DNA of 64,000 nucleotides from an uncultured delta proteobacterium (GTDB lineage Bacteria > Myxococcota_A > Polyangia > Fen-1088): positions 96,001-160,000 of the forward strand of contig CAVTRY010000014.1 of the NCBI GenBank assembly GCA_963737265.1, read 5' to 3'. The notes below the pieces were generated by a model. It did not search any database and was not told the origin of the DNA. It worked only from the letters and a program-made list of their open reading frames with translations. Position 1 is the first letter of the stretch. Every line of letters starts with the position of its first letter. Of this stretch, positions 2,351 through 62,082 are shown piece by piece. The position numbers and the translations under genes were made by a program.

Positions 2351-2376
2351 GAGTCGCAGGACCTTCCGGCCGGCTG

Positions 2377-4200: not shown

Positions 4201-4560
4201 GTGATCGCAACAACCTGGTTGAAGTCGCCCGTGTTCGTGGTGGTGGCGACGCAATCGCTGTTCACCATCGGCGATCTCATGGCGCGCGCGAATATGCGCA
4301 AGCACGGGTTCACCGCGGCCGCGTTTCTGAACCTCGGTTTTCTGGCCTATTTCCTCATTCGGCAAGTCGCCATGTTCGGCCAGCTCTACGTTCTTGCCAC
4401 CGTGCCCATCGGCAAGACCATGGCGCTCTTCGGTGCCGTTTCCATCATTTTCGCCAACCTGCTCGGCGTCTTGCTCCTCGGCGACCTGCTGTCGCTGCGT
4501 TCCTACGCCGGCGTCGCCCTGGCTGTGCTCGCGTTCACGGTTATGAGCTTCGCGAAGTAA
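4201..4560 (+). CDS. Small EamA/SMR-like (DMT superfamily) membrane protein, ~119 aa
   Basis: Four hydrophobic segments ending ...LLGVLLLGDLLSLRSYAGVALAVLA; likely GTG start at 4201 within ORF 4015..4560. Confidence 0.7.
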   Translation: MIATTWLKSPVFVVVATQSLFTIGDLMARANMRKHGFTAAAFLNLGFLAYFLIRQVAMFGQLYVLATVPIGKTMALFGAVSIIFANLLGVLLLGDLLSLRSYAGVALAVLAFTVMSFAK

Positions 4561-4706
4561 ACCTCCCTAGCCGTGTGACGGTGGCATTCGGAGTCTTGCC
4601 GCCGACGAATTCGACCTGATCGATGTCCCTTCGTCTGTCTTGGAACGTGGGGTATCATCGCCGCGTTAGCGATTTTCCGCACATTCGCAGGCTCCCACGC
4701 GCCAAT

Positions 4707-4967
4707 ATGTCCACTCGATTTTTCACCAACCTCGGCAGCAACACACTCCTTGCCAAGCTTGAAGGCGTCTTTCACCACAACCCGGACATCGAGTGGTTCG
4801 ACGCCCTGGTCGGCTACCTGCGAGCGTCCGGCTATTTTGCGTTGCGCCCGCACCTTGAAAAGGTGCCACACGTGCGCATTCTCGTCGGAATCGATGTCGA
4901 TGAAATCGTCGCGGACTACCACAAGCGGGGACTCCTTTTCCTCGCCGACCCGGCCAGGCCGCCTTGA
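4707..4967 (+). pseudogene. N-terminal stub of a PLD-domain/SNF2-type helicase
   Basis: MSTRFFTN...FDALVGYLRASGYF...VRILVGIDVD resembles the N-terminus of large PLD-helicases found with R-M systems; ends after ~86 aa. Confidence 0.6.
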
Positions 4968-5605
4968 ACGATGAAGAGCTTGCGCTCAAGGACAGCTCGC
5001 TCAGCGTCTATCTGACCGAAGCGGTGAAGCAGGGTCTGGTTCACGACGCCGGGCGAGGGTGGTACTCGCGCCTCGCCGATCGCGTGGCGCTGGATCCCAA
5101 GCCCGTTGCCAGGCTGGTTCGCGCGGTCGAAAAGGCGTTCCCATTGCTCGACTTCACCGTCTGGAGCACGGCGCAGGTGAACCCGTGGATGCACCACTTG
5201 CTCGCGCAGCCCGTGGCGTTTCTGCACGCCCCGGCGGACACGCTGGAATCCATCGGAGAAGCACTGGTCGAGTTGAAATGGAACGTGGGGATCAATCCAC
5301 CGCCCAGCACCGCCGCCAAGAGCGTCGAGCCGAGCGAGAAGACCGTCGTCCTGCGCCCCACGCTGTCGAAACAGCCCATCGCTGAGGGTCGTCAGGCGCC
5401 GATCGAGAAGATTCTGGTGGACCTGATCGTGGAGGCCCCGCTGCTTTCGTTGATGGACAGTTCCGAGGCGCAAGCCGTTGTCCGGAACGTGCTTGACGTG
5501 CATCTAGCTAATATTGCTGCCATCCAACGCTATGCCGACTCGCGTCGCGTTGCCTTCGAAGCGATTAACCAACGCCACTCAATCGCCTCTAGTGGCGTTA
5601 GTTAA
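4964..5605 (+). CDS. DUF6577-like putative type IV TA antitoxin, probably N-terminally truncated
   Basis: wHTH-like SLSVYLTEAVKQGLVHDAGRGWYS, VWST..NPWMHH and IEKILVDL motifs; directly upstream of an AbiEii gene. Confidence 0.7.
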   Translation: MNDEELALKDSSLSVYLTEAVKQGLVHDAGRGWYSRLADRVALDPKPVARLVRAVEKAFPLLDFTVWSTAQVNPWMHHLLAQPVAFLHAPADTLESIGEALVELKWNVGINPPPSTAAKSVEPSEKTVVLRPTLSKQPIAEGRQAPIEKILVDLIVEAPLLSLMDSSEAQAVVRNVLDVHLANIAAIQRYADSRRVAFEAINQRHSIASSGVS

Positions 5606-5610
5606 TCGCT

Positions 5611-6728
5611 GTGTTTCAAGCCCAAGCCTTCACCGTCGAGTGGATCCGCGCCCAAGTGCAGGACGCTGGGAAATTGCGACCCCGGGATCCTTGAAAAGTG
5701 CGTTCACGCCCTGACCTTGCTCGGTCATCTGGCCGAAAGCGGCCTGCCGTTTCTTTTCAAGGGCGGCACCAGCCTACTCCTGCACCTGCCCGAACCACGT
5801 CGCCTCTCGCGCGACATCGACATCGTGTGTGGCCAGCCAACGCACGAGGTCGACACCGTGGTGGTGCGGATCGGTGGGCGGGCTCCATTTCTGCGCTGGG
5901 CGGAAGACCCGCGCGGGGGCGCGCGGCTGCCACGGCGGCGGCACTTCAAATTCTTCTACCGATCCGCGCTGCCGGGGAATCCCGAGACCGAGGTCTTGCT
6001 CGATGTGGTCGAGGAATCGCGCGAAACCCATGAGGTCGTGAGCCTTCCCATCCGCACCAGCTTTCTGCGGCCAGAGCGAGAAGTGGCTCGTGCGCATCCC
6101 GACCATCGAAAGCCTGCTCGGCGACAAGTTGACCGCGTTCGCCCCATCCACGACCGGAATACCACTGCGCAACGCCGATGGGTCGGAGGCCGACGTGCAG
6201 CAGGTTGCCAAGCAGCTTTTCGACGTCGGTGCGCTGTTCGATGCAGCCAGCGACTTCGTCGTAGCGGACAAGGTTCACGCCGCTGTGTGCGCTCTCGACG
6301 CAGAGTACCGAGAATCGCGGCCGACACGCGAGCAAGCCCTCGACGACACATGGCGAGCCTGCCTTGCGATGACGGCGACCAAGCCAGCGATTTGCGCGGG
6401 GTATCCAGATGGGCCGCTGCTACACGCAGGGCTCGACCGCATGAGAGGGCACCTTATCGAACCGAAATATGTGGCGGGCCAGGCCGCTCGTCAGAAATTG
6501 GCCGCGAAAGCGGCGGTGCTGGTGGCCCACATGCGCTCAGGCGCCATGTTCGACTTTGCGGCCAATCGGTACACCGGCAGCTCTACCCAGTTGGATGCCG
6601 TGCGGGCAGCAACTCTCAACGGCACCGATCTCGCTTGGCTCGACAAGATGAAGACGGTTAACCCTGAAGCGTTTCATTACTGGCATCGGGCCGTGCTTGT
6701 ATTCAAGGCAACGAGTTTTGGCAAATAG
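5611..6728 (+). CDS. AbiEii/AbiGii-family nucleotidyltransferase toxin (two +1 frameshifts near 5652 and 6085, likely sequencing errors)
   Basis: Reconstructed MFQAQAFTVEWIRAKCRTLGNCDPGILEKCVHALTLL; FKGGTSL and RLSRDIDI in ORF 5717; ESLLGDKLTAFAP and KQLFDV in ORF 6090. Confidence 0.8.
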
Positions 6729-6733
6729 ATGCA

Positions 6734-7402
6734 TCACTTGTGGCTGGCCATCCCCACATACACGACATGAACTCGTCCACCTTGGCCGCTCCGGTGGCGC
6801 TGGACGGAGAAGCCGGCGGCGGCGAGTCGGTCCTCGAAGGCGCGGTCGCGCTCTTCGGACCAGACGGCAAAGGCGCCGCCGGGCCGCAGCGCCGACGACG
6901 TGCGCGCGAGAGCGTCGGCGCCATACAGCGGATCGCGGGCGCTGTTGGTCGCGGCGTGCGGGCCCTCGTAGAGATCGAGGACGATGGCGTCGAAGTGGCC
7001 GGCGGGCGCGCGCGCGATCGCCTGCGCCACATCGGCCACGACGATCTTCACGCGCGGATCCTCGACCGCTTTCCGGGTCAGGAAGGCGAGCGGTCCGCGG
7101 TTCCACTCGACGAGCGGGCGGTTCAGATCCACCACTGTGAGCCGCGCGCCGGCCGGCAAACGGTCGAGGGCCGTGCGCAGGGTGAAGCCCATGCCGAGAC
7201 CGCCCAGTAGCACCTTCGGTCGCGGCTTGTCGGCCAGTGCGGCACAGGCGAGGCTGGCAAGCTCGTCTTCCGAGCGGTGCGCGGCGCTGGTCATGAGAAT
7301 CCGGCCGGCGATGGTGATGAGGAAATCTCGGTCGCCGCGACGGCGCAGTTCCATGATGCCTTCGCGGGTCTGCACGCTTTCGATGATTTGCCAGGGGAGC
7401 AC
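6734..7402 (-). CDS. Spermidine-synthase-like class I SAM-dependent methyltransferase
   Basis: VLLGGLGMGFT SAM motif, FDAIVLDLYEGP, LRPGG; likely GTG start at 7402. Confidence 0.85.
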   Translation of the reverse strand: MLPWQIIESVQTREGIMELRRRGDRDFLITIAGRILMTSAAHRSEDELASLACAALADKPRPKVLLGGLGMGFTLRTALDRLPAGARLTVVDLNRPLVEWNRGPLAFLTRKAVEDPRVKIVVADVAQAIARAPAGHFDAIVLDLYEGPHAATNSARDPLYGADALARTSSALRPGGAFAVWSEERDRAFEDRLAAAGFSVQRHRSGQGGRVHVVYVGMASHK

Positions 7403-7502
7403 GGCCGTGACTCTACCTGACCGGCGAGCACCGAAGCACGGATCTCTCGCGGACGCACGCATGGGTTTGATCCGGAGCCGTTCCCTGGTAGCAGTAGGGG
7501 CG

Positions 7503-10292
7503 ATGTCGTCTCCCAAAATGTCCGCGGTCGTGTTTCGTGCCGCGGTATTCGCCGGACTTCTGGTCGGTATCGTCGATGGCGTGCGCGCCGCTGCGCTCGG
7601 GCACCTGCGCGTCCTTGGGCTGCTCGCCTGTTTGATTCTGACCGCCGGTTGCGATGTGCTGGCGGCGGCAGCGGGTGGCGCGGTCCTGGCGTTGCTGCTA
7701 GGAATAGCGGGTTGGGGACGGAAGACGAAGGCCGGCGCGCTCGGCGCCGTTGCCGGTTGGCTAGTCGCGGGGGGCGCGGCTGCCACCGCGGTCGCGGCGG
7801 CAGTTCAAGGAACCGCCGTGCGCAACAACCGTTTCCTCGCCGCGGGCGTGGTGGTGTTGGCTTCGCTGGTTGCGGCGCTGGCGGCTTGTTTCTTGGGGCC
7901 GGCGCTGGTCCGCCTGTGCCACCGTTTTCTTCACCTCCGGGCGAAGGCCGAGCTCCAGGATGCACACCTGAGCGCGGCCGGAATTCTCGTGCTTGCTCCG
8001 TTGGTAGCCGTCGCCGTGGAAGCCACCGTGTTTTTCGTCGTGTGGCGCACGCGCGCGCCCTTGCGCCAGGACGTCCTACTTGCACGAGAGGCTTGGGCCG
8101 CGTGTCTGACCACGCCTCTTCCGTTCTTGCTTTCCTGGACCAGCGCTCGCTTTTCCCGCGTGCGCTGGTGGCAAGGCGCGCTGGTCGCAGCCATTCTCTT
8201 CGGCGCACCAACCGCCTCTCTCGTTCGCTTGCGCTGGGCGCAGGATTTTCAGTTCTTGCCTTGGCCGATCGTGGTCGCTGTCGCCAGCATGGCCATCGTC
8301 ACCGCTGGCCTCTCGGTTCTTCTTCGCGACCGCACGCCAAGCCGAAAGTGGAATCTCATTGTGGTTGCCGGCCTGCCAATTTTCGCCCTCATCGCGCTCT
8401 TCACTGCATCGGAATACGAACCCGCGCGCAAGGCGGCTTCGGCGCGGGCCGGTCTCGTCGGCGACTTCCTTGCCAACGGCCAGCGCTTGTTCGACTTCGA
8501 CCACGACGGCTATGCACGCTTTCTCGGCGGCGGCGACTGCGACGACCGCGATCCCGGACGCAACCCCGGCGCCACCGATTGGCCCGACGACGGAATCGAC
8601 CAGGACTGCGACGGCAAGGACGCCACCGCCGCGGTCCTGCGCTCGCCGCCGTTCGAGCCCGTGCCCAACGCGGTTCCCGCCGATTTGAAGATCCTTCTTG
8701 TCACCATTGATACCCTGCGCGCGGATCACTTGGGTTGCTACGGTTATGCGCGGCCCACCTCGCCCAACCTCGATCGCTTGGCTGGCGAGGCAACGTTGTT
8801 CGTGAACGGCTGGGCCCACGCCCCGTCCACGCGCTATTCGATGCCCGCCATCGCCACCGGCCGCTGGCCGTCGGCTATCGAATGGGACGAATCGATCTGG
8901 TGGCCGCGCATCGCGCCCAGCCAGCGCATGATCGCCCAGTCTTTCAAGAGTCTCGGCTACACCACGGCGGCTTTCTACGCCTATCTCTACTTCAACCTCG
9001 CCGATAGGCGCGGCTACGAGCGCGGGGTCGACTACTACGACGACACCTGCGCGGCCTTGCATATGAACGTCAGCGGCCCGGCTGAGTCAGTTGGGACATC
9101 GGCCCGGCAGATGGCGGACAAGGGCATCGCCTTCCTGCGCGCGCACGGGCAGGAGAAATTCTTTCTGTGGATGCACTTCTACGATCCGCACCTCAACTAC
9201 GAGCGCCACGCCGAGGCGCCCAACTTCGGCGCTGCGCAGGCCGACCTCTACGACGGCGAAATCTGGTTCACCGATCAGCAATTCGGCCGAGTGCTCGACG
9301 AATTGCGCGCGCTTGGGCTGTGGGACAAGACCGCCATCATCGTGGTCGGCGACCACGGCGAGTCGTTGGGCGAGCACGGCATCGTGGCCCACGGCTACCA
9401 TTTGTATTCGCCCCACACCAAGGTGCCGTTCATCGTCCGCGTGCCAGGACTGCCGAGCCAGCGGCTGACCACGCCGGTCGGCCATGTCGACCTGGCCCCG
9501 ACCATGGTGAATCTGGCGCGCGGCCCGCACGAACCGTCTTTCCTCGGCCGCTCGCTCGTCGACCTCCTGGCCGGCAAGCCGGCGCCGCCCCCCCGAGGTC
9601 CCGTTTTTCAGGAGGTCAGCTACGAGGGCAACGTCAAGCGGCGGGCTCTGGTGACGGCGACCCATCACCTTATCTGGAACTGGACGCCAGACAACACCAC
9701 CGAATGCTACGACATCCTTCACGATCCCGGCGAGACGAAAGATCTCTGGGGTACAGCCGATGGCGAGCCCGTCTGTTCGCAATTGAAAGAAGACCTGCGC
9801 AGTCGGGTTGCCCTGCTGTCGCTCCCACCGGGCTACAGCGAAAAAGTTGCCTTCGGGTTCATTCCCGCGGGATCGCCCGTGCCGGCGCCTGCCCAGGCAA
9901 TCGATGCGCGCATCGGTTCCGCCCTGCACGTCTCGGGCTACGACCTTTCTTCGCAGACGGTTCGGCGCGGCGACAGCGTCGAGCTTGTCACGCACTTCGA
10001 GGTGCGCGGTGCCATCGAACCGGGCTGGAAGTTGTTCTTTCACATGGACGGCCCAGGCGGCTTCCGCAACCTCGACCACGTTCCTGTCGAAGGCGCCTAC
10101 CCCATGGAGCGCTGGCACCCTGGCCAGCGCATTCGCGACCGCCTGCACATCACATTTCCGCCGACGTCGCCCGCTGGCGTGTACTCGGTCTACGTCGGCC
10201 TTTTCAAGGGCGGCCAGCGTTTGCCCGTTAGCCCCGCCGGTACCAGCGACAGCCACGACCGGCTGCGTCTGGCGACGATATTGGTGCAGTAG
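7503..10292 (+). CDS. Membrane-anchored sulfatase-like hydrolase/transferase (alkaline phosphatase superfamily)
   Basis: Multi-TM N-terminus; DCDD...PGA...DGIDQDCDG metal-binding motif; ILLVTIDTLRADH, HFYDPH and GDHGE...EHG motifs. Confidence 0.85.
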   Translation: MSSPKMSAVVFRAAVFAGLLVGIVDGVRAAALGHLRVLGLLACLILTAGCDVLAAAAGGAVLALLLGIAGWGRKTKAGALGAVAGWLVAGGAAATAVAAAVQGTAVRNNRFLAAGVVVLASLVAALAACFLGPALVRLCHRFLHLRAKAELQDAHLSAAGILVLAPLVAVAVEATVFFVVWRTRAPLRQDVLLAREAWAACLTTPLPFLLSWTSARFSRVRWWQGALVAAILFGAPTASLVRLRWAQDFQFLPWPIVVAVASMAIVTAGLSVLLRDRTPSRKWNLIVVAGLPIFALIALFTASEYEPARKAASARAGLVGDFLANGQRLFDFDHDGYARFLGGGDCDDRDPGRNPGATDWPDDGIDQDCDGKDATAAVLRSPPFEPVPNAVPADLKILLVTIDTLRADHLGCYGYARPTSPNLDRLAGEATLFVNGWAHAPSTRYSMPAIATGRWPSAIEWDESIWWPRIAPSQRMIAQSFKSLGYTTAAFYAYLYFNLADRRGYERGVDYYDDTCAALHMNVSGPAESVGTSARQMADKGIAFLRAHGQEKFFLWMHFYDPHLNYERHAEAPNFGAAQADLYDGEIWFTDQQFGRVLDELRALGLWDKTAIIVVGDHGESLGEHGIVAHGYHLYSPHTKVPFIVRVPGLPSQRLTTPVGHVDLAPTMVNLARGPHEPSFLGRSLVDLLAGKPAPPPRGPVFQEVSYEGNVKRRALVTATHHLIWNWTPDNTTECYDILHDPGETKDLWGTADGEPVCSQLKEDLRSRVALLSLPPGYSEKVAFGFIPAGSPVPAPAQAIDARIGSALHVSGYDLSSQTVRRGDSVELVTHFEVRGAIEPGWKLFFHMDGPGGFRNLDHVPVEGAYPMERWHPGQRIRDRLHITFPPTSPAGVYSVYVGLFKGGQRLPVSPAGTSDSHDRLRLATILVQ

Positions 10293-10368
10293 CCACCGGA
10301 GAACGCCCAGAAATCTATGGTTGACCGTCCACTTCCGCGCTAAAGCCCACGCTCGCACGAGAACAGCC

Positions 10369-11508
10369 GTGATTTACGCCGACTACAACGCGACCACTCG
10401 CCTCGATCCCGAGGTGCGGGCGGCGATGGACGAGGCGTTGGACGCCGGGTTTGGCAATCCGTCGAGCATTCACGCCGCCGGGCAGGCGGCACGGCGGCTG
10501 GTAGATAGGGCGCGCGCGCAGGTCGCCCGGCTCGTGGGCGCGGCGCCCGAGGAAATTGTGTTCACTGGCGGCGGCACCGAAGCCGACAATCTGGCGGTGC
10601 TCGGCGTGGCCAGCGCGGCGCCGCGCGATCGCCCAGGCATCGTGACCAGCGCCGTCGAGCACCAAGCCGTTTTGGCCCCTTGTGCCTTCCTGCAAAAGCA
10701 GAGCCACGAGGTCACCTTTCTGCCGGTCGATGGCGCCGGCCGAATCGATCTCGCGGCGCTGGAGGCCGCCGCCAAACCCGACGTCGCGCTGGTGTCGGTG
10801 ATGTTCGCCAACAACGACACTGGGACCATCCAGCCGGTAGCCGAGGTAGTGAAGGTAGCGACGGCTTGCGGTACCGCGGTTCACACCGATGCGGTGCAGG
10901 CGGCCGGCAAGCTGCCCATCGACGTGAAGAAGTCGGGGGTGTCGCTGCTCTCGTTCTCGTCGCACAAGATCCACGGACCCAAGGGGGTGGGCGCTCTCTA
11001 CGTCCGGCGCGGGGTGGCTCTGGCACCGCTGGTACACGGCGGCCGGCAGGAGCGCACGCTGCGGCCTGGAACGGAAAACGTGCCCGGCATCGTCGGATTT
11101 GGCAGGGCGTGCGAGCTGGCGCAGGCACGCCTGGAAGCCGACAGCCGCCGCGTGGCCGAGTTACGCGCCCACTTCGAAACGCAGATTCTGGCGCGCGTTC
11201 GCGGCACTCGATTGAACGGCGGCGGCGATCGCTTGCCCAACACGTCTAATATCGCCTTCGCCGGCCTCGATGGCGAGGCCATCACCATCAACCTGGACCT
11301 GGCCGGCATGGCGGTATCCACCGGCGCGGCGTGCAGCTCGGCCGACAAGACGCCCTCGCACGTGCTGGTCGCCATGGGCCAGTCGGCGCTGGAAGCGCGC
11401 TCGTCGGTGCGTTTTTCCTTCGGCCGCGACAACACCGATGAAGAGATCGACCGAGCGGTAACCCTGGTCGTTCAAACCGTAAACATGCTGCGCGGGGCGC
11501 GACGATGA
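10369..11508 (+). CDS. iscS: Cysteine desulfurase (IscS/NifS family)
   Basis: IYADYNATT, FTGGGTEADN, HTDAVQ, SSHKIHGPKG (PLP lysine) and STGAACSS motifs; GTG start at 10369. Confidence 0.93.
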   Translation: MIYADYNATTRLDPEVRAAMDEALDAGFGNPSSIHAAGQAARRLVDRARAQVARLVGAAPEEIVFTGGGTEADNLAVLGVASAAPRDRPGIVTSAVEHQAVLAPCAFLQKQSHEVTFLPVDGAGRIDLAALEAAAKPDVALVSVMFANNDTGTIQPVAEVVKVATACGTAVHTDAVQAAGKLPIDVKKSGVSLLSFSSHKIHGPKGVGALYVRRGVALAPLVHGGRQERTLRPGTENVPGIVGFGRACELAQARLEADSRRVAELRAHFETQILARVRGTRLNGGGDRLPNTSNIAFAGLDGEAITINLDLAGMAVSTGAACSSADKTPSHVLVAMGQSALEARSSVRFSFGRDNTDEEIDRAVTLVVQTVNMLRGARR

Positions 11509-12585
11509 GTGAGCGCATCGTCGTGGCCATGAGCGGCGGCGTGGACAGCAGCGTGGCCGCAGCGCTGCTCCGGCAAGCAGGGCATTCCCTCGTCGGCGTC
11601 ACGCTGAAATTGCAGGAATGCCACGACGCCCACGGCAGCAAATCCTGTTGTGGCGTCGACGGAGTCACGCGCGCACGCGACGTGGCCGCCAGCCTCGGCA
11701 TCCCGCACTACGTGCTCGACTGTGTGAAGGATTTCGAACAGCTCGTGCTGCTGCCGGCGTGGCAAGAATACGCGGGAGGCCGAACGCCCAGCCCGTGCTT
11801 GCTGTGCAACGAACACGTGAAGTTCGGCTTGCTGCTCGACTGGGCCGAGCGCCTCGGCATTCCGCGCGTGGCCACCGGCCACTACGCGCGCCTGGAAAAG
11901 GACGAAGCCGGCCAGACGATGCTGCTGCGCGGCTGCGACACGGGCAAGGATCAATCGTATTTCCTCGCCGGTCTGTCGCTCAGCCAGCTCGGACGCGCGG
12001 CCTTTCCCGTGGGACATCTGCGTAAGCCCGAGGTACGCGCCTTGGCCAAGAGCCACGACCTCCCCACGGCAGAAACGCCCGAAAGCCAGGACGCATGCCT
12101 GGTTCGAGCCGGGCCAGTCGTTCTCCGAGATGTTGCGCAAGCGCTTCGCTGCCCCGGCGAAGACCGGCGAGATTGTCGACGAGGCCGGCCAGGTGGTCGG
12201 CCAGCACGCCGGCATTCACGTGTTCACCATCGGCCAGCGCAAGGGGCTGCCCGCGGGCGCGGCCTCGCGCCGCTGGGTCAAGTCCATCTCGCCCGAAACG
12301 GGCCAGGTCACCGTGACCGGCAACGCGGCCGAGCTCGTGGGCACCGAGTTCGTGGCCAAGAGGGTCAACTGGCTCGACGGCCCGCTGCCTGCTGCGGTCC
12401 TGCCGTGCTCGGTCCAAGTGCGCTATCGCCACGCCAGCGAACCCGCCACCGTCGAGGCCCTGGCCGACGGCAACCTGCGGGTCATCCTGGCCAAGCCCGT
12501 GAAGGCCATCACCCCGGGTCAAGCCGCGGTCTTCTACGACGGCGACCGCACCCTCGGTCGCGGCTGGATCGCTCCCCCTACGTGA
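11505..12585 (+). CDS. mnmA: tRNA-specific 2-thiouridylase MnmA (one +1 frameshift near 12103, likely sequencing error)
   Basis: AMSGGVDSS, TPSPCLLCN, ATGHYAR, KDQSYFL and ESQDAC in ORF 11505; FTIGQRKGL, VRYRH and ITPGQAAVFY in ORF 12130. Confidence 0.92.
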
Positions 12586-52367: not shown

Positions 52368-52739
52368 ATGCCAATTTACGAATACGAATGCCAGGCCTGC
52401 AACCATCGCTTCGAGGAATGGCAGAAGATGTCCGACAAGCCGGTCAAGGTTTGTCCGAAGTGCAAGGCGCGCAAGGTTGACAAGCTGATCAGCCACACGT
52501 CGTTCCAGCTCAAAGGTGGCGGTTGGTACAGCGATCTCTATTCCAGCCAGAAGCCGGGAAGCTCGGACAAGTCGGGCGACAAGCCCGAGTCGTCCGCCAG
52601 CAGCTCCGGGACGGGCGCCGACAAGAAGTCGGGCGCCGAGTCCAAGGCCGGCGAAACATCAGGTTCCACGTCCACGACCACGGACAGCAAAGACAAGAGC
52701 AAGGGCAAAAAGGGCGCGACCAAGGCAGCGGCTGCCTAG
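52368..52739 (+). CDS. FmdB-family zinc-ribbon protein
   Basis: MPIYEYECQACNH...CPKC...SFQLKGGGWYSDLY plus a low-complexity S/K tail. Confidence 0.92.
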   Translation: MPIYEYECQACNHRFEEWQKMSDKPVKVCPKCKARKVDKLISHTSFQLKGGGWYSDLYSSQKPGSSDKSGDKPESSASSSGTGADKKSGAESKAGETSGSTSTTTDSKDKSKGKKGATKAAAA

Positions 52740-52830
52740 CACCGTCTGCCAGAGCAGAGCGACCTGAGCGCCGCGCATGACCGTTCGGACGTGTCCGAAC
52801 GGGTTCATTCAATCAAGGAGAAAACGGAAA

Positions 52831-53118
52831 ATGAAAGTCAGACCACTCTACGATCGCATCCTCGTCAAACGCGTTGAGGAAGAAACCAAGACCGCCGGCG
52901 GGCTCTTCATCCCCGACACCGCCAAGGAAAAGCCCCAGAAGGGCTTGGTCGTTGCCGCGGGCAACGGCAAGCTTCTGGAAAACGGATCGATTCGCAAGCT
53001 GGACGTCAAGGAGGGCGACAAGGTTCTCTTCTCCAAGTACTCCGGCAACGACATCAAGATGGACGGCGTCGAGCACTTGATCCTCCGCGAGGACGATGTC
53101 CTCGCCATTCTCGAGTAG
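52831..53118 (+). CDS. groES: Co-chaperonin GroES
   Basis: [14 protein letters not shown]...[15 protein letters not shown]; AAGGAG RBS. Confidence 0.97.
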
Positions 53119-53136
53119 ATACGAAAGGAAATCATC

Positions 53137-54792
<1,656 letters not shown>

Positions 54793-54797
54793 GTAGA

Positions 54798-54923
54798 CCC
54801 GCGCTCTGGCTTCGGCGGGCAAGGCCCGCCTCCGCCAAATGTCCGTGATGGGAACCCTGAAAGGGTTCCCAAACCCTCCCGCGCTCTGGCTTCGGCGGGC
54901 AAAGCCCGCCTCCGCCAAACGTC
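54798..54923. repeat. Left part (~1.5 units) of an 80-bp REP-like two-hairpin tandem array
   Basis: Nearly identical to the units at 58474-58717; hairpins TGGGAACCC-tgaaa-GGGTTCCCA and GGCGGGC-aaa-GCCCGCC. Confidence 0.9.
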
Positions 54924-55062
54924 GGGTTTGCCCGGACATTCGCGTCATCGACTGAATTACCGGGCAGCTAAAGGAATTGGCGGGCAACCGCGCCGCAACT
55001 AGCGAATGGGGCGGCGTCGCGTTACCATGGCGACGACTCTCAACCCCACCGTGGAGGCTCGC

Positions 55063-55254
55063 ATGAATTCCGACACGCAAATGATCGTCCTTGGCGTCGA
55101 AGCGGTCCTTGGCATCGTCATCCTGTTCGCTCAGGTCAAGCTGTTCTCCATCGCGTCCACATTGACCGATTCCAAGACGAAGCTGACCGCGATTAGCTCC
55201 ACCTTGGACGCGATCCTTCAGGAAATGCACAAGAACCGGGACAAGCAAGCGTAG
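55063..55254 (+). CDS. Small membrane protein (63 aa, TM + amphipathic helix), transposon passenger
   Basis: GGAGG RBS; MIVLGVEAVLGIVILFAQV hydrophobic stretch. Confidence 0.6.
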   Translation: MNSDTQMIVLGVEAVLGIVILFAQVKLFSIASTLTDSKTKLTAISSTLDAILQEMHKNRDKQA

Positions 55255-55263
55255 GATGAATCC

Positions 55264-55431
55264 ATGCGAAAGACTCCCTGGCATTCGACCAAGAAGGGCA
55301 CGAGGCACTACCACAACAACGGAAAGTGCGGTCCTGGGGGCGAGATACCAGACCGCAATCGAGCGACGGGACCTGGCACAGGGTTGACCCTTTGCGAAGA
55401 CTGCAAGAAGCTCAACAGAGATGGCAAGTAG
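55264..55431 (+). CDS. 55-aa putative zinc-binding protein, transposon passenger
   Basis: Hand translation MRKTPWHSTKKGTRHYHNNGKCGPGGEIPDRNRATGPGTGLTLCEDCKKLNRDGK*, with H-x4-C and CxxC; below the ORF-track cutoff. Confidence 0.6.
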   Translation: MRKTPWHSTKKGTRHYHNNGKCGPGGEIPDRNRATGPGTGLTLCEDCKKLNRDGK

Positions 55432-55435
55432 GAAG

Positions 55436-55828
55436 CTAGGCACGAAGCTTTCCTCCTCTCCACTTCGCTCGCTGGTCATGCTTCGGATCTTCGCGTAGAG
55501 CATCGGTCCTGACGAATTCGATTTCCCACTGCGGCCCGACAAGCTCTAGATCGAGGACATCCCAAACCCTGCAAAGACGGGCTACTTTCAGTCCATTCTG
55601 CTGTGCCACCGCGACCGCGCGCAGTCCTTCATAGTGTTCCCCGCTGAACCATACGGTGGGATCCCTTCGTGGGTGAGTATCGCCACCCTCGCAGGATTCG
55701 ATGGTTTCAATCCCGCCTTCTTGCAGAAGACGCACGGCCCTAGCAATGCCCTGATCGATAGGACGCGCGCCGCGACCTTCGGGAGGGGTTTTCCGCTCCC
55801 GCGTTATTGCCGAGCGCGATCCTCTCAT
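55436..55828 (-). CDS. Hypothetical passenger protein with D.GI..V..L...G.ET..SCEG motif
   Basis: ATG at 55828 overlaps the stop of the HTH gene (ATGA); IDQGIARAVRLLQEGGIETIESCEGG. Confidence 0.65.
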   Translation of the reverse strand: MRGSRSAITRERKTPPEGRGARPIDQGIARAVRLLQEGGIETIESCEGGDTHPRRDPTVWFSGEHYEGLRAVAVAQQNGLKVARLCRVWDVLDLELVGPQWEIEFVRTDALREDPKHDQRAKWRGGKLRA

Positions 55829-56109
55829 GGCCTGACACCTACTTCTGGCCCACGTCCACAATGTGGGCATGTTCCGGCCAGAGGGTACCTCCCAGACACC
55901 ACGTCATCGAATAGCACGCACGCCAGCCTGGATACCTGGAAGGCCAGATTGACCGACGCTGGGTTGACGCCCTTGTCGATGTTTTTCATGGTGCTCAACT
56001 CGAAGCCAAGCGCCTTGGCGAGCATCTTCCACGTGCCCACTCGAATGCGCAGGAAGCGCAGAGCGGCCATGACGTTCGCCCGCTGCTCCTTGCTCAGTCC
56101 GCGTCTCAC
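55825..56109 (-). CDS. XRE-like HTH protein with C-terminal CPHC
   Basis: WKMLAKALGFELSTMKNIDKG helix-turn-helix pattern; GTG overlaps the transposase stop (GTGA). Confidence 0.7.
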   Translation of the reverse strand: MRRGLSKEQRANVMAALRFLRIRVGTWKMLAKALGFELSTMKNIDKGVNPASVNLAFQVSRLACVLFDDVVSGRYPLAGTCPHCGRGPEVGVRP

Positions 56110-57341
56110 GCTGTCACCTTCCTAAGAAAGCTTGGCTCTATGCCGAGCTTGTGCATGGCCATGACCAAGCACGACAGATTGTGACAGAGCACCTTGCACA
56201 AGATCTCGTTAACCTGTGCGGTGAAAGTCTTGGAGCGCACGGACTGGCCAAACTTGCGCTTGACCGCTGAAAAGGTGCTTTCGATGGCGCTGCGCTTGGA
56301 GTAGGCCGCGAGAAAATCCTCGTGCTTAAACATGAAGACCGCGCGCATCTTGCGCCACGCTGGCGATCCATCGTCCTGGCTGTTGATCTTGAAAGGTATG
56401 AATGGCGAAGCGCCGGCGGCTTCGATGGCGGCTAGATTCTCGTGCCCGAGATACGCCTTGTCCGCCGAGACTTCTGCCATGCCTACGAAGCGTTGCTTCG
56501 TAGCTTCCACCAAGCCGGGGAGTTGGGGAGAGTCCGCGCCGCTGCTGTCCGTAACCCGGACGGCGGTGATGATGTTTGTCGATGTTCCGATCATCGCGTG
56601 CGCCTTCAGCCAGGTATGCTCCTTCATCTCGCGTCCGTACTTCTGATCATACCAGCGACGGCAAATGGCAGTGCCAAAACCAGTCGAGTCCACCGCAAAG
56701 GCAGTCTCGACGGCGGCCAGGGGCTCCGCGCTTTGTTCTATCAGCTTCGTCAGAAGCTCGGTCACCTCGACCTTGTCGAAGTAGTCGATGATCGTGTTGT
56801 AGCGTGGCACCTTGGTCATGTGGCCAGCTTCGCCAGACGCTTCCAGGTCTGTCGTCGCGCGACGGGCGGACATCGCCACGTAGACCTTCATTACCATCGC
56901 AAAGACGGCGTCAGAGAGAGGCACTGGCTTGCGACCACGGCCCGCATGCGCCGGAGTCTTGATGCCGTCGCAGAGCCCACGCAGAAGGTGCTCAACCGTC
57001 TCCTTCTCCTCGCACTGGGCGGTGTTGTAGGCGTTCCAGTCGCGATCTTGCGGCGCCCGGCTGTAGCTGATGGACTGGGTAACAACGTCTCCCTTTTCAG
57101 ACTTCGCAACCGTCTGTGCGAATTCCACGGCCCACTGGTGCTTGCAGCGTATGCGGCGAAGCTCGAAATCGGGGCATGAGCAGGTGCCTTCCGCCACGTT
57201 GACGAGGTAGCCGCCCGATGGCTGGGTTTGCGATGGCACAAGCCAAGTCACGCCCGCCACGCACTTGATCCGGTTGTCATGCGAAAGCATCCTGCCGCGC
57301 TCTTGCCGAAGATCCGTTGTGCTCGCCTGCGTTGTCGTCAT
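56106..57341 (-). CDS. DDE transposase (IS5/IS4 superfamily) with N-terminal SWIM zinc finger
   Basis: CSCPDFELRRIRCKH (SWIM), DWNAYN, AVDSTGF, WLKAH, ADKAY, and YSKRSAIESTFSAVK matching Y-x2-R-x3-E-x6-K. Confidence 0.92.
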   Translation of the reverse strand: MTTTQASTTDLRQERGRMLSHDNRIKCVAGVTWLVPSQTQPSGGYLVNVAEGTCSCPDFELRRIRCKHQWAVEFAQTVAKSEKGDVVTQSISYSRAPQDRDWNAYNTAQCEEKETVEHLLRGLCDGIKTPAHAGRGRKPVPLSDAVFAMVMKVYVAMSARRATTDLEASGEAGHMTKVPRYNTIIDYFDKVEVTELLTKLIEQSAEPLAAVETAFAVDSTGFGTAICRRWYDQKYGREMKEHTWLKAHAMIGTSTNIITAVRVTDSSGADSPQLPGLVEATKQRFVGMAEVSADKAYLGHENLAAIEAAGASPFIPFKINSQDDGSPAWRKMRAVFMFKHEDFLAAYSKRSAIESTFSAVKRKFGQSVRSKTFTAQVNEILCKVLCHNLSCLVMAMHKLGIEPSFLRKVTA

Positions 57342-57347
57342 GATTAT

Positions 57348-57415
57348 ATGTATACATTAGCGCGCGTGAAGATGCAAGGTAAATGTGTTGACAATAACAT
57401 GACGCCTGGTATCCT
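57348..57415. promoter_or_regulatory. Divergent sigma70 promoters for the transposase and RHH genes, with a palindromic site
   Basis: Minus strand TTGCAT-N17-TATACA, 7 nt before the transposase ATG. Plus strand TTGACA-N16-TATCCT, 6 nt before ATG 57422. Palindrome ATGTATACAT at 57348-57357. Confidence 0.6.
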
Positions 57416-57421
57416 CAAATC

Positions 57422-57604
57422 ATGAGCCCAGCACCACGCAAAAAGGCGTCAGAGCGACGCGAGACGCCACTCCAGATCCGTCTGACCGCAGAGGAAAAGA
57501 AGATGTTCACTGAGGCGGCCGACCGCGACCACCTATCAATATCGGCGTGGCTACGCCTGGCGGGCCTTCACGCCATCGAGAACCGACACAAGCTGAAGGG
57601 ATGA
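57422..57604 (+). CDS. Ribbon-helix-helix DNA-binding protein (DUF1778/MobC-like)
   Basis: LQIRLTAEEKKMFTEAADRDHLSISAWLR strand-helix-helix pattern. Confidence 0.75.
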   Translation: MSPAPRKKASERRETPLQIRLTAEEKKMFTEAADRDHLSISAWLRLAGLHAIENRHKLKG

Positions 57605-57606
57605 TC

Positions 57607-58332
57607 CTACTCGTCATCGCCCTGACTGGGTGTCAGGCTGATTCCAAAATCACGAACGTCCTTACGCATCTCGACGATGACCTCGCTAATGTCTTCAATG
57701 TTTGAGTAGCGAGGCTTAGGCGATCCAACGATCTTGCCGCGTTTGTTCACATCCAATCTGGGTTTGCCCAGAATCTTCACTAGTTCGTCGAGCACCTGAC
57801 TCCGGAAGGCAGCGTTGTTCTTCAGTTCCTCAGTGTTAGCCCCAACGATGCCGCGTAGAGAACTCAACGAAGCCGAGAAATCCTCACGAGCCCCGCTCAC
57901 CCGAGCGGATTGAGTTTGATCGTACTGCTCCATGGCTTTCAAAAGCGAGGCAGAAACAGCCGCGAGTTGATCCGCAACCGGCGTTTCAAAGCCTGACAGC
58001 TTCTTCTCAAGACCCGCCAACCTGTTTTCATACTGCAACCCACGCCGCGCGTTTGCTTGAGTTTGTAGCGCGAAGTGAAGAACCAACATTGCCCACAGCG
58101 CGAAAGCAAGATTCAACAGAATAGCTCCGAGTCTTGCCTCGACGGATAGAAGCTGAGGCAATCCAAGAAAGAAGATGCACCCCAGGACGGTCACAACCAG
58201 CACACCGGCAATGATCTCTGCCGTCCTCGGGTTAAGACGTGGCATGACCCGCTCCGCCAAGCGCAAAAGACCAGCGATTGCTACAAACTCGATGAGCGCC
58301 CCTATGGCGGCTCCCAGAATGATGTCTCGCAT
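57607..58332 (-). CDS. Hypothetical membrane protein (3 TM + helical tail), transposon passenger
   Basis: Three hydrophobic segments then heptad-like region; more AT-rich than the host genes. Confidence 0.65.
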   Translation of the reverse strand: MRDIILGAAIGALIEFVAIAGLLRLAERVMPRLNPRTAEIIAGVLVVTVLGCIFFLGLPQLLSVEARLGAILLNLAFALWAMLVLHFALQTQANARRGLQYENRLAGLEKKLSGFETPVADQLAAVSASLLKAMEQYDQTQSARVSGAREDFSASLSSLRGIVGANTEELKNNAAFRSQVLDELVKILGKPRLDVNKRGKIVGSPKPRYSNIEDISEVIVEMRKDVRDFGISLTPSQGDDE

Positions 58333-58473
58333 GGCGCGCGATGCTACCACCGCCGCCCCCGCGCCGTAAGCACGCCGCAGCGCCCGCGTGGCCCATCATG
58401 TCACCGGCCCCTTTCGGGAATTGCCGGGCAGCCGGGGGAATTCTCGGGCAGGTGAGAATTGGCGGGCAAGCCC

Positions 58474-58717
58474 CCAAACGTCCGTGATGGGAACCCTGAA
58501 AGGGTTCCCAAACCCTCCCGCGCTCTGGCTTCGGCGGGCAAAGCCCGCCTCCGCCAAACGTCCGTGATGGGAACCCTGAAAGGGTTCCCAAACCCTCCCG
58601 CGCTCTGGCTTCGGCGGGCAAAGCCCGCCTCCGCCAAACGTCCGTGATGGGAACCCTGAAAGGGTTCCCAAACCCTCCCGCGCTCTGGCTTCGGCGGGCA
58701 AAGCCCGCCTCCGCCAA
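58474..58717. repeat. Right part (3 identical units) of the 80-bp REP-like tandem array
   Basis: ccaaacgtccgtgatgggaaccctgaaagggttcccaaaccctcccgcgctctggcttcggcgggcaaagcccgcctccg three times, with no spacers. Confidence 0.95.
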
Positions 58718-58812
58718 CGCGGTCGCCCGAAAAGGTACTGTCTAGAGCGCCCGGCAGTTTTCCCGTCGGGCGTTTTTCTAGCGCCCTCCGCGGTGGCGGT
58801 TACAATGGAAGC

Positions 58813-59208
58813 GTGATCGCCGAAGTCGTGGACAATCGCAGAAGAGATCCTCGCATCGAGGTCTTCGCCCAGGCCGAGGTAAAGGCCAAGGATGTCCAGA
58901 TCATGGAGGTCCGCAATGTGTCCACGGGCGGGATCTATCTCGTCGGCACGTCCGCCCAATATCCCGACCTGGCTCCTGGCAAGGATCTCGGCCTCGTGAT
59001 CTTCGGCCTGGAAGATGGCTTGGGCGACGACCCGACCTTCAATATTGTCTGCCGTGCGCGCATCATTCGCATCGACGAGGGCTTTCCGGGCAAGCGTCCG
59101 CCCGGTTTCGGCGCCACCATCGATCCCATCGACGAAGACAACCGCGACCGCCTGACCAACCTGCTTTTGCGGGCCGACCATTTCCGGGCGGGCGATCCGC
59201 GCCGGTAG
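58813..59208 (+). CDS. PilZ domain protein
   Basis: RRRDPR (RxxxR) and NVSTGG (D/NxSxxG) c-di-GMP motifs. Confidence 0.85.
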   Translation: MIAEVVDNRRRDPRIEVFAQAEVKAKDVQIMEVRNVSTGGIYLVGTSAQYPDLAPGKDLGLVIFGLEDGLGDDPTFNIVCRARIIRIDEGFPGKRPPGFGATIDPIDEDNRDRLTNLLLRADHFRAGDPRR

Positions 59209-59262
59209 TCGCGACAAGCACGAAAGTAGCGGAAGCCGCGGCCGAGTGGTAACAGGAAGAGA

Positions 59263-59634
59263 GTGTTGCGGCTTCTTAGGCTGATGTTCTTCCTGGGCTG
59301 TCTTGTGGCCCTGGCCTGGTTTGGCATGACCGTGCCACTCGGGGATCGAACCCTGTTCGAGCACGTGCAGGCGATCTTGAAAACGAATGCGTCGCAAGAT
59401 CTCTTGCGCGGCACCAAGGAAAAAATGAGCGACCTCGTGGATCGCGCGACCGACAAAGTCGTCAAGGGCGTTGCCAGGAATACGCCCAGCCAGGTCAACT
59501 CGCGCGGCGAGGGCGCGGGGCAAGAGCCAGGCGTCACTCCGCCTCCGCCACCTCCGATGGAAGACTTGCCCGCCAAGGATCGCAAGGCGCTGCGCGGGAT
59601 CATCGGGCAAGGTCGCCCCGTGAACAACCCGTGA
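59263..59634 (+). CDS. Hypothetical membrane-anchored protein
   Basis: N-terminal TM, TVPLGDRTLFEH motif and Pro-rich linker; lies between PilZ and cyaY on the same strand. Confidence 0.7.
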   Translation: MLRLLRLMFFLGCLVALAWFGMTVPLGDRTLFEHVQAILKTNASQDLLRGTKEKMSDLVDRATDKVVKGVARNTPSQVNSRGEGAGQEPGVTPPPPPPMEDLPAKDRKALRGIIGQGRPVNNP

Positions 59635-59645
59635 TGGGAAGAAAA

Positions 59646-59978
59646 ATGGAAGAGAACGATTACCGCCAGCGCGTGGATGAAATCTTCCGCCGCATCGACG
59701 CAGCCTTCGAAAACGTGGATCCCGATCTGGCTGAATCGGACTATGCCCAGGGCACGCTGGTCATTACCTTTCGCCAGGCGCACAAGTTGATCTTGTCGCC
59801 GCAGACGCCGCTGCGACAAATCTGGATGGCGTTTCGCGACCGCGCCTGGCATTTCGCCTTTGCAGAGACGAGCGGGCGACCAGAAACGTGGACCGACGAC
59901 CGCGGCCAGGGCGTGGAGTTGCTGGGGCTCATCGCAGAGCTAGCGCGCGAAAACGCCTCGTCACAGATAGCGTTCTGA
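59646..59978 (+). CDS. cyaY: Iron donor protein CyaY (frataxin-like)
   Basis: Acidic first helix, GTLVITF and ILSPQTPLRQIWMA...WHF motifs. Confidence 0.85.
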   Translation: MEENDYRQRVDEIFRRIDAAFENVDPDLAESDYAQGTLVITFRQAHKLILSPQTPLRQIWMAFRDRAWHFAFAETSGRPETWTDDRGQGVELLGLIAELARENASSQIAF

Positions 59979-59982
59979 CGTT

Positions 59983-61818
59983 CTAGATCGGATAGTCAGG
60001 CGGTCCCACGGAGCCGCCCATGGTGTGGCCTTCGCGCCACAGGGCTTCTTCCATGGCTGCAAGCAACGGCCCAATGGTTTGTCGGTCGAGCGCGCTCACC
60101 GCCAAAACGCGGCCGCTGTCTTCGAGGATGGCTCTCTCCTCGGTCTGTAGGCGGTCGGCCTTGTTGTAGACCAGCAGGCGCGGCGTCTCGGCCAGATTCA
60201 AATCGCCGAGGATGCGCTCTACCGCGGTGATGTGGGCATCGCGATCCGGATCCGATGCATCGACCAGGTGGAGCAAGAGATCGGCGTTGTCCAGCTCCTC
60301 CAGCGTGGCGCGGAACGCTTGCGCGAGATCCTTGGGCAGATCGCGTATAAATCCCACGGTGTCGGCGAGAATCAACTCTCGCTCGCGCGGGAAGCGCAGC
60401 CGGCGGGTGGTCGGATCGAGGGTGGCGAAGAGCTTGTCTTCCACCAAGACGTCGCTGCCGGTGAGACTGTTCAGCAGGGTGGACTTGCCAGCGTTGGTGT
60501 AGCCCACGATGGCGACGACAGGCAGTCCGTGGCCTTCCCGCGCAGAGCGCCGGTTCGCGCGCTGGCGGCGGGTTTGCTCGATGTCTTTTTCCAAGCGATG
60601 CAACCGCTCGCGCGCACGGCGGCGGCCGATTTCTAGCTTGGTCTCGCCCGGGCCGCGCCCGCCAATGCCTCCCACCAGGCGACTCATCATGGTGTTTTCT
60701 TCCTGCAGTCGCGGCAGGCGATAGCGCAATTGCGCCAGCTCGACTTGCAGCTTGGCGTCCCGGCTGCGCGCGCGCTGGGCGAAGATGTCGAGAATCAGAA
60801 TGGTTCGATCGATCACCTTGAGATCGGTAAACGACGCGATGGCATGGGCCTGGCCCGGCGACAGATCAGGATCGAAAATCAGCACGCTGGCATCGAACTG
60901 CATGGCGCGCACAAGCACGTCCTCGAGCTTGCCGCGACCGATGAGGTAGCGCGGATCGGGTTCGGGCCGTCGCTGCACCGCCACGTCCACCACCAGAATG
61001 CCGGCGGTTCGGCACAGCTCGCGCAGCTCGTGTACGCGGCTATTGTCTTGGGAACCCTGGGCGGGTTCCCAAACCTTCCCGCGAGGCTCCGCTGCCGGCA
61101 AAGCCGGCAGGCTCCGCACGCGACTATTGTCTTGGGAACCCTGGGCGGGTTCCCAAACCTTCCCGCGAGGCTCCGCTGCCGGCAAAGCCGGCAGGCTCCG
61201 CACGCGACTATCGCCGCGCGATTTGCCGATCTCCGCCACGACCAGCAGGGCGCGCTCGGCCGAGCGGGTCGCGCGCGTGGAGGGCAGCACGCGCTCGAAT
61301 TCTTCTTCCAGCGCGGCGATGATCTCGGCGGGATCGACGGGCGCGCGGTGGAACGGCGCGGGTGGCAGTGAGACCCAGGGCGATTTGCCTTCGCGGGGTG
61401 GGACCAGGTGGGCAAGGTGAAGATCGGCGGGCCGGCCTTCGTGATTGACGCCCACGGCGGCGACGAGATCCAGGCGCAAGAGAGCGAGATCGACGAGATC
61501 GTCGCGCGACAGGGTTTCGTTGCGCAAGTGGGTGTGCACCAGGCGTAGCCCGCGAAAGCGGCCGTGACCAGCGCGGAGGCGTCCGACCTCGGGCAGAACG
61601 ATGCGCGAGGCGTCGCCCACGAAGACATGCTCGATATCGCCCCGGCGTGAGATGAGCACGCCGACTTGGCGCCCGATGCTTCGCGATACCTCGCACAAGT
61701 AGGCGCCAAGCTCGGCCGAGACGACATCGTTGGGCGCGACCCGTCGGCGGTACACGCGTTCGAGGGCCGACAGCTCCGAGGGCTTGAGGCCCGCGCGATT
61801 TCCCGTCACCTCGTGCAT
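59983..61818 (-). CDS. hflX: GTPase HflX (long N-terminal form) with a 56-aa in-frame repeat insertion
   Basis: [51 protein letters not shown] and NKAD motifs. Confidence 0.95.
61034..61211. repeat. 84-bp tandem palindromic repeat (2 units) inside hflX
   Basis: Two identical 74-bp cores separated and flanked by acgcg(g/a)ctat; encodes [28 protein letters not shown] twice. Confidence 0.92.
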
Positions 61819-61839
61819 GCGGGCTCAAAAGTGTTGATA

Positions 61840-61895
61840 GGGAAACCCTGGGAGGGTTTCCCCAATTCCGCGACAAGCGCAGCGACGTCGCGGAA
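61840..61895. repeat. Divergent two-hairpin element related to the 80/84-bp repeats
   Basis: GGGAAACCC-tggga-GGGTTTCCC followed by TTCCGCGAC...GTCGCGGAA. Confidence 0.55.
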
Positions 61896-62082
61896 GGCGG
61901 CAGAAAGAGGGGCCTTTCCAGGAGGGACGCGCCACCCAGTTGGAGCGATGAATGGTGGTCGTAAACGTCGTTGTCGTCGTGGCCCTGGCCGTGGCCGACG
62001 AAGATCACTCCGGCCACGGCCACGACCTTCTGCACCTTTCGCGGAATTACGGGCCGGGCTTAGCCCGCCTTCGCCTACCGGA

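Follow-up and report, generated by a model that had tools for sequence, protein, structure and literature searches.

How does a transposon come to lie in an array of hairpin repeats, one of whose hairpins looks much like the transposon's own end? The question is raised by a 3550-bp element found downstream of groEL in the 64,000-nucleotide stretch of DNA that we analysed as a whole (hereafter the ‘window’; the features discussed are collected in Table 1). An earlier note on this DNA had proposed that the transposase may choose its target by binding a motif in the host repeat that resembles the element's own terminus. We instead favour, with a probability of roughly 0.58, palindrome-phased target capture by a transposase of the IS903 type. 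Across the family to which the element belongs we see two preferred insertion geometries: the commoner places the duplication ∼21 bp, or about two helical turns, off the centre of a G+C-rich palindrome, the rarer on that centre itself; neither the palindrome's sequence nor the element's orientation makes a difference.

Taking first the copy in the window, a scan for inverted ends and duplications places the element between two identical copies of the 9-mer CCAAACGTC, which together form a perfect target-site duplication of 9 bp. When the flanks are joined with a single 9-mer between them, a self-match at a lag of 80 runs over 361 nt, equivalent to 4.51 units, with two mismatches that both fall within the first, partial unit; the continuous array of ∼4.5 units claimed by the earlier note is thereby restored without a seam. 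Because excision restores a seamless array, we can rule out that the repeat units are either part of the element or one of its products. The array is intergenic, beginning 6 bp past the groEL stop codon, and to the right of the element Tandem Repeats Finder returns a period of 80, 3.0 copies and 100% matches. Full units contain GGCGGGCAAAGCCC (e.g. 54894–54907) and the right end of the element (58461–58473) reads ...GGCGGGCAAGCCC, both as previously described; the gap between GGCGGGCAAAGCCC and the 9-mer measures 7 bp (GCCTCCG), not the 8 bp given before. By blastn and tblastn the element is single-copy in this genome, so that the ‘many safe landing sites’ envisaged for it are, here at least, weakly founded.

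Each 80-bp unit of the array folds into two hairpins, which we term ‘A’ (GGGAACCCTGAAAGGGTTCCC) and ‘B’ (GGCGGGCAAAGCCCGCC); two units folded as single-stranded DNA give a z-score of −5.85, with none of 200 shuffles folding equally well. Hairpin A is a genus-wide repeat, present in 39 copies in this genome and in 32, 122, 137 and 158 copies in four congeners, with counts of 0–2 per strand for a reversed-pattern control. The units share with repetitive extragenic palindromic (REP) sequences and bacterial interspersed mosaic elements (BIME) the character of short, G+C-rich palindromes set in arrays, here at several loci; REP repeats usually exceed 100 copies per genome (abstract of PMC2817692). 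The sole match in the genome to PF01797, the Y1/RAYT transposase family, lies at G000:C16:130409–130666 (L136) and scores 21.8 bits, under the cut-off of 23, and a search of positions 52500–62000 against Rfam, at E-values up to 1, found no family. The same repeat family also contributes two tandem units of 84 bp at 61036–61212 of the window, inside a gene for an HflX-like GTPase (open reading frame (ORF) 59983–61818, minus strand); each comprises hairpin A and a B-type hairpin, CTGCCGGCAAAGCCGGCAG, and they sit in frame, the repeated stretch encoding ∼28 amino acids and the 611-aa frame staying open.

The behaviour of the wider family was read from a curated survey covering 74 insertion events of relatives, with 91 unique outer flanks, assembled from 20 genome stretches, the best 80 of 146 metagenome relatives and a few earlier loci. 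The rule for curated ends required a GGCTTTG tip, whilst a parallel scan for duplications was independent of the tip; L044, L047, L048, L049, L070, L119 and L131 were added by hand from this second scan alone. The L071 pair at 2075–12192, whose tips are not GGCTTTG, was dropped, as were L045 at 4287, L046 at 3193, L116 at 5341, L121, L122 and L130 at 3345, which have no subterminal repeats. In 20 of the events the two ends pair across a 9-bp duplication, exact in 19, and delimit elements of 2614–7806 bp; four further left and right singles (L039, L048, L083 and L085) probably pair with an offset of 1 bp. The family tips read GGCTTTG(CCC/ATC/CAC/CCT), and do so too in ends recovered by the tip-independent scan. 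Related flank sequences are not independent of each other, and the background used is made up of 60-mers taken at random from this genome.

With the flanks aligned on their duplications, the centre of a palindrome falls 19–23 bp from the centre of the duplication in 20 of 90 cases (mode 21, mean 20.9, standard deviation 1.5), against 0–3 flanks in each of five control windows of equal width; a secondary peak, at 29–33 bp, holds seven flanks. Measured another way, 21 of the 90 flanks have the 3′ foot of a hairpin between −18 and −12, compared with 2–7 in five control windows, and stems of at least 7 are present in 33 of 91 flanks as against 12.3% of 3000 random 60-mers. The hairpins beside these 21 duplications fall into six or more unrelated sequence types, among them hairpins A and B and several of G-run/C-run character, and they face type-1 and type-2 element ends in a ratio of 10:10. 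The window copy conforms to this geometry through hairpin A, whose centre stands 21.0 bp from that of the duplication, the family mode; hairpin B, at 17.0 bp, is outside the peak. As for the rarer geometry, the duplication coincides exactly with a palindrome centre in two insertions for which both flanks are available (L043/L100 and L044), and four single flanks (L042, L047, L051 and L053) resemble palindrome-centred insertions.

The site in the window is not random. Eight insertions by different elements (L036, L037, L045, L050, L056/57, L058, L059 and L060) fall at the 9-mer CCCGCG(C/A)T(C/G) in the A-to-B spacer of the repeat family found here, with 7 bp separating it from the hairpin on either side and element orientations split 4:4. 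The window copy lies in the B-to-A spacer, used by none of the other 73 events, and thus on the opposite side of hairpin A from the hot spot, though equally far from its centre; the foot of hairpin A is found at −16 to −18 in seven flanks, the right flank of the window copy included. The earlier suggestion that the host repeat serves as a landing site is thus supported, with the hot spot in a different spacer from the one used in the window. A second type of two-hairpin repeat is struck at equivalent positions in L048 and L083, which come from two sources; here a G-run/C-run hairpin is followed by the target and then, 14–15 bp further on, by GGCGCGGCAAAGCCGCGCC. Another repeat array serves as the target of a 2614-bp family member at L091:880–3620; its tandem unit is 21 bp long, GTCCCAAAGCATCTTCGGATC, and the duplication there reads CATCTTCGG.

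How, then, should the likeness between hairpin B and the end of the element be understood? IS30 and IS911 insert beside sequences that resemble their own ends, and by analogy the transposase might bind hairpin B as a pseudo-end and insert at a set distance from it. The resemblance itself is real: the right end in the window can be aligned to hairpin B with one indel and 13 of 14 positions matching, the motif standing 7 bp from the duplication, and hairpin B contains the family consensus tip 10-mer, GGCTTTGCCC, exactly. Across the survey a 10-mer within one mismatch of GGCTTTGCCC occurs in 9 of 91 flanks, compared with 0.83% of 20,000 random 60-mers, and a tip-like hairpin is present in 6 of the 21 hairpin-adjacent flanks (L006, L037, L050 and L056, and on the far side in L048 and L083). 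Such a resemblance is unlikely in random sequence, yet it rests on one hairpin family; the nine tip-like flanks consist of six with B-type hairpins that derive from one or two repeat families, making the effective sample very small, together with one that abuts an element end and two in which the motif is 52 nt away. Within this genome a GGCTTTGCCC-like 10-mer is found in 27 of 3053 perfect hairpins, five of the 27 being those of the present array. At L054:6640–6830 one family member ends 11 bp (TCAAAGGGGGG) before another begins; one hot spot may have been hit twice or, as end mimicry would have it, an element may have inserted beside an existing end.

Set against these observations, the flanks match the tip of their own element no better than they match the tips of others (mean 6.15 versus 6.11; Wilcoxon, 93 flanks, p = 0.26), which speaks against target choice through an own-end-like motif, and the left flank in the window scores 8.5 for its own tip, below the 10.4 averaged by other tips. 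The motif is missing from 82 of the 91 flanks, and from the 30 letters shown beyond identical ends in contigs assembled from soil sequencing runs. Between the hot spot and the window the tip-like motif differs in both offset (10 versus 8 bp beyond the 10-mer) and orientation, and insertions at the hot spot include two beside a hairpin B that is not tip-like (L036 and L059) and one where hairpin B is absent (L058), the latter by an element with GGCTTTGATC tips. The centre of hairpin B is, moreover, the one that falls outside the 19–23 bp peak. In having no excess of own-end similarity and no constant offset or orientation, the family thus differs from IS30 and IS911, despite the 13/14 match in the window, and we consider recognition of hairpin B as a pseudo-end quite unlikely. 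Since the tip itself holds the palindrome GGC-TTT-GCC, a G+C-rich hairpin with an A/T loop can come to resemble it by composition; we propose that the likeness of hairpin B to the end is a by-product of both containing GGC-WWW-GCC.

A more sceptical explanation would have no real targeting at all; merely a weak CC...GG preference, coupled with survival of insertions at harmless sites behind genes, at terminators and in repeats. The compositional signal by position is, indeed, weak (a CCC...GGG tendency across the duplication region, with C at 46–56% at −9 to −7 and G at 46–53% at −3 to −1), the majority of flanks have no palindrome, the two further family members in this genome, on contigs C11 and C13, are not inserted in a repeat, and identical ends are met elsewhere in the soil contigs. 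Selection, however, cannot fix the distance to a palindrome to within ∼2 bp, as seen for 20 of 90 flanks in one 5-bp window, nor can it bring eight different elements to the same 9-mer of a repeat; in genome G036, which carries hairpin A in 158 copies over 6.5 Mb, all four of the element ends that could be mapped lie in or beside such repeats. We therefore hold an absence of targeting to be unlikely.

Saying this, several observations also weigh against palindrome phasing. No palindrome falls in the 19–23 bp peak for 70 of 90 flanks, and 58 of 91 have no stem of at least 7 within 60 nt; since most flanks thus lack a palindrome, the rule is either a preference or holds for some subclades only. 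The flanks that do bear hairpins represent few repeat families (the A/B, G-run/C-run and GGACC types), and a sequence hot spot particular to each repeat family could mimic a palindrome rule; the targeted flanks also share phased C-runs, so that what is read may be sequence and not structure. Surviving insertions are filtered by selection for harmless positions between genes, where hairpins abound, and the background was drawn from the genome at large. Lastly, the tips of the window copy, GGGTTTG and GGGCTTG, depart from the family consensus, and that copy is a single one.

Were capture phased by palindromes, the transposase would, in the manner of IS903-type elements, bind three repeated sites at each end, cut the target with a 9-bp stagger and paste the element in, so generating the 9-bp duplication. 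Arrays of two alternating hairpins present spacers with a palindrome on each side, the window copy sitting in one such spacer. The target-capture complex may read a feature of structure or symmetry, be it a hairpin that has extruded, a groove or bend of unusual shape, or a bound protein, with either the SWIM-bearing N-terminal region of the transposase or the Xre-like accessory protein as the putative ‘reader’; whichever it is might respond to structure, symmetry or the phased C-runs. In a bolder version, which we regard as doubtful, a structure-guided SWIM transposase, perhaps with its Xre-like partner, would take as its ‘ruler’ either an extruded hairpin or cruciform or the point of symmetry in any G+C-rich palindrome, inserting either two helical turns off the centre or on it; on that view the tip-mimicking hairpin may have co-evolved as a decoy or docking site.

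The ruler need not be DNA. In enterobacteria, nucleoid proteins and gyrase bind REP/BIME elements, and a host protein seated on the repeat hairpins might similarly recruit or position the transposition complex; a fixed distance that is independent of orientation would suit a bound symmetric protein as well as it suits a DNA structure, and the repeats are conserved across the genus. With at least six unrelated hairpin sequences used in different organisms, however, one sequence-specific host protein would be insufficient, and our analysis offered no candidate for it; tethering of this kind strikes us as very unlikely.

Turning to the element itself, the transposase combines an N-terminal SWIM zinc finger (residues 45–74, with C54, C56, C66 and H68; PF04434, E = 2.3e-8) with a DDE_Tnp_1 catalytic domain (residues 212–389; PF01609, E = 1.3e-21, 77.8 bits against a cut-off of 23). 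In an alignment of 12 relatives these four residues of the former are invariant, as are D218, D294, E354, Y347, R350 and K361 of the latter; the signature spacing of IS5/IS903 transposases is Y-(2)-R-(3)-E-(6)-K. The best NCBIfam model, that for IS5 (NF033579, IS5_2), scores 133.6 bits, under its cut-off of 140, and covers residues 123–389 only. Each end of the element carries three GAATTNNCGGGCA-type repeats, which are putative transposase sites; all three are oriented alike at the right end, whereas the left end has its two inner copies inverted with respect to the tip. Read inward, the right end, GGGCTTGCCCGCCAATTC, agrees with the left, GGGTTTGCCCGGACATTC, at 15 of the first 20 positions. 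Because of the DDE domain, the GGCTTTG tips, the 9-bp duplication and the near-threshold score for the IS5 model, we read the element as a relative of the IS903 group that acquired an accessory gene and cargo, together with a SWIM domain and multiple sites at its ends; on this evidence from sequence, it would be a cargo transposon of an undescribed branch of that group, within the IS5 family.

IS903 proteins are ∼300 aa long. The present transposase, at 411 aa and with its N-terminal SWIM domain, differs from them, as does the element in having three sites per end rather than a single inverted repeat, Xre-like and ribbon-helix-helix genes, and 1–4 kb of variable cargo; shared with IS903 and IS903B are the DDE_Tnp_1 domain with its Y-R-E-K residues, the GGCTTTG tips and the 9-bp duplication. 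In IS903B the inverted repeats start with GGCTTTGTTGAATAAATC and the direct repeat measures 9 bp (PMC10569121, in excerpt). For IS903, Table 1 of PMC2577343 gives a target motif of WTTYA-N9-TRAAW, with flanks symmetric about the 9-bp duplication, and describes symmetric motifs around the duplication as common, IS903 included. Going by that table, the choice of target depends, as here, on symmetry outside the duplicated 9 bp; in our case the palindrome is ∼21 bp away, in place of the A/T-rich pentamers that stand beside the IS903 duplication. With its SWIM domain and 411 residues, three end sites, accessory gene and variable cargo, and with family members of 2.6–7.8 kb, the element is more than a simple insertion sequence.

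The Mutator-like elements of eukaryotes (MULE/MuDR) also join a SWIM domain (PF04434) to a DDE transposase and have multiple subterminal repeats. The likeness to Mutator/IS256 extends to the 9-bp duplication, which Mutator makes too (Table 1 of PMC2577343). Membership of Mutator/IS256 is nevertheless ruled out because the catalytic domain is PF01609, of the IS4/IS5 type; the SWIM domain is N-terminal here and C-terminal there, and its presence in both was probably acquired independently.

Insertion into REP sequences has, according to excerpts of PMC1525189, been documented in five families: IS3 (IS1397 and ISKpn1), IS110 (IS621, ISPpu9/10 and ISPa11), IS4 (ISRm22), IS256 (ISRm5) and IS5 (ISNm1106). 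The same excerpts explain the REP fragments beside these insertion sequences as the broken target rather than part of the element, and state that IS30 needs an H-HTH motif to bind its specific targets. The present family resembles the REP-targeting elements in its recurring positions within palindromic repeats and in flanking fragments that are likewise a broken target. It differs in inserting beside or between hairpins at a set distance, in using hairpins of unrelated sequence, in its myxobacterial host and in its cargo; furthermore, in the strong REP-targeting cases all copies lie in repeats (5/5 to 10/10; PMC1525189, excerpted text), whereas approximately a quarter to a third of insertions are palindrome-associated here. 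What sets the family apart from each of these systems is thus the union of SWIM with an IS5-type DDE domain, of composite ends with cargo, and of a palindrome of any sequence with a set distance.

The family is a large one, with at least 4090 proteins at E < 1e-10 among 8000 candidates scored, some from Polyangia bins; where named, these relatives are called just ‘transposase’, and they occur in soil and peat metagenomes. Of 89 genomes from the order, 16 contain relatives, and a phylum-wide sample of 401 gives seven at E 1e-60; this genome's own apart, none of these exceeds 47% identity. The closest relative (L055, 92% identical) is on a 2.2-kb contig that lacks the ends. A scan of genome contigs with the single transposase protein gave three loci only. 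Besides the window copy, this genome has a full-length relative of 58% identity with GGCTTTGATC tips, of which the left end only was found (G000:C11:1185974–1187481), and a relic of 2.3 kb whose transposase gene is truncated and which lacks a matching duplication (G000:C13:250676–252936). In a collection of plasmids we found distant IS5-family genes only, with 0 of 749 records covering 80% of the transposase and no GGCTTTG in the plasmid region L135; the catalytic part is ∼27% identical to that of IS5-family genes on enterobacterial plasmids. A literature search, which did not extend to ISfinder, returned no description of a SWIM-bearing IS5/IS903 transposase among the papers listed.

Contigs from soil runs of one study match the element exactly as far as 54924 on one side and 58473 on the other, before passing into unrelated DNA, the junction at the right end being seen in three runs; that community thus contains further sites with identical ends. 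The segment 57596–58473, which holds the 247-aa cargo gene and the right end, is letter-identical in another context at ∼76-fold word depth, as against ∼4 for the rest, and is joined on its inner side to different DNA; these contigs suggest that the elements are mosaics sharing end-plus-cargo modules. None of the soil-run contigs joins across the element or has the empty-site form, although contigs drop rare variants, so that absence is not shown by this. One contig skips 55100–55417, with 28 letters only on one side, and was not relied on.

The 55-aa and 144-aa cargo genes (55264–55870) recur together, at 58% identity, at L042/L071:7588–8088 in an element with GGCTTTGATC tips, and this points to a small cargo module passed between elements. 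Cargo is otherwise sparse in its matches, with 0–2 for each of the four ORFs across 104 related loci; the 82-aa ORF has neither a family match nor a homologue in those loci. The 94-aa accessory gene, in contrast to the cargo, is present in 84 of the 104. Its product is predicted to be a helix-turn-helix protein like Xre and lambda repressor, with CPHCG at its C-terminus; a profile search of solved structures gave PbsX/Xre regulators (best E = 3.5e-4), and a structural model (predicted local distance difference test score 88) has as its top Foldseek matches lambda-repressor-like folds throughout, each weak (E ∼0.04, TM ∼0.5). The 60-aa ribbon-helix-helix-type gene matches PF21983 at 32.3 bits (cut-off 27), with NCBIfam matches under cut-off, and was found by tblastn at 20 of the 104 loci.

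Table 1. Coordinates, within the window, of the transposon, its genes and ends, and the repeat array around it.
Feature	Position	Strand	Description
groEL	53137–54792	+	551 aa; from ORF list, named by reading of the translation, not by family search
Array, left part	54798–54923	+	37-nt partial unit, one full unit and the duplicated 9-mer; blastn of unit, periodicity
Hairpin B	54894–54910	.	GGCGGGC AAA GCCCGCC; tip-like; centre 17 bp from duplication centre
Target-site duplication, left copy	54915–54923		CCAAACGTC
Whole transposon	54924–58473		3550 bp; inverted-end and duplication scan, blastn
Left end, type 2	54924–54986	+	Tip GGGTTTGCCCGGACATTC; inward sites GAATTACCGGGCA at 54954 and GAATTGGCGGGCA at 54974
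Cargo ORF	55006–55254	+	82 aa; one hydrophobic stretch
Cargo ORF	55264–55431	+	55 aa; cysteine-rich; 58% identity to an ORF in one other element (L042/L071)
Cargo ORF	55436–55870	-	144 aa; start uncertain; 58% identity to L042/L071; no family match
Accessory gene	55825–56109	-	94 aa; start overlaps transposase stop
Transposase	56106–57341	-	411 aa; SWIM zinc finger and DDE_Tnp_1
Ribbon-helix-helix-type gene	57422–57604	+	60 aa; NikA/RelB-like; divergent from transposase gene
Cargo ORF	57607–58350	-	247 aa; N-terminal half membrane, by reading of the sequence
Right end, type 1	58418–58473	+	GAATTGCCGGGCA at 58418, GAATTCTCGGGCA at 58438, GAATTGGCGGGCAAGCCC at 58456–58473
Target-site duplication, right copy	58474–58482		CCAAACGTC
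Array, right part	58474–58717	+	3.0 units, 100% identity; Tandem Repeats Finder
Hairpin A	58488–58510		GGGAACCCTGAAAGGGTTCCC; first one right of the insertion; centre 21 bp from duplication centre

Taken alone, the window yields a modest result: a single-copy element in an ordinary intergenic repeat. The choice of target by DDE transposases is, however, understood for few elements only, and landing at a fixed distance from a palindrome would, if true, be a simple case of targeting by the shape or symmetry of DNA rather than by its sequence; it would also account for the gathering of mobile DNA in hairpin repeat arrays. A description of this large, cargo-bearing family would improve the annotation of myxobacterial genomes and, should the structure-guided version hold, the cargo transposons of soil myxobacteria would gain harmless docking sites beside terminators and repeat arrays.

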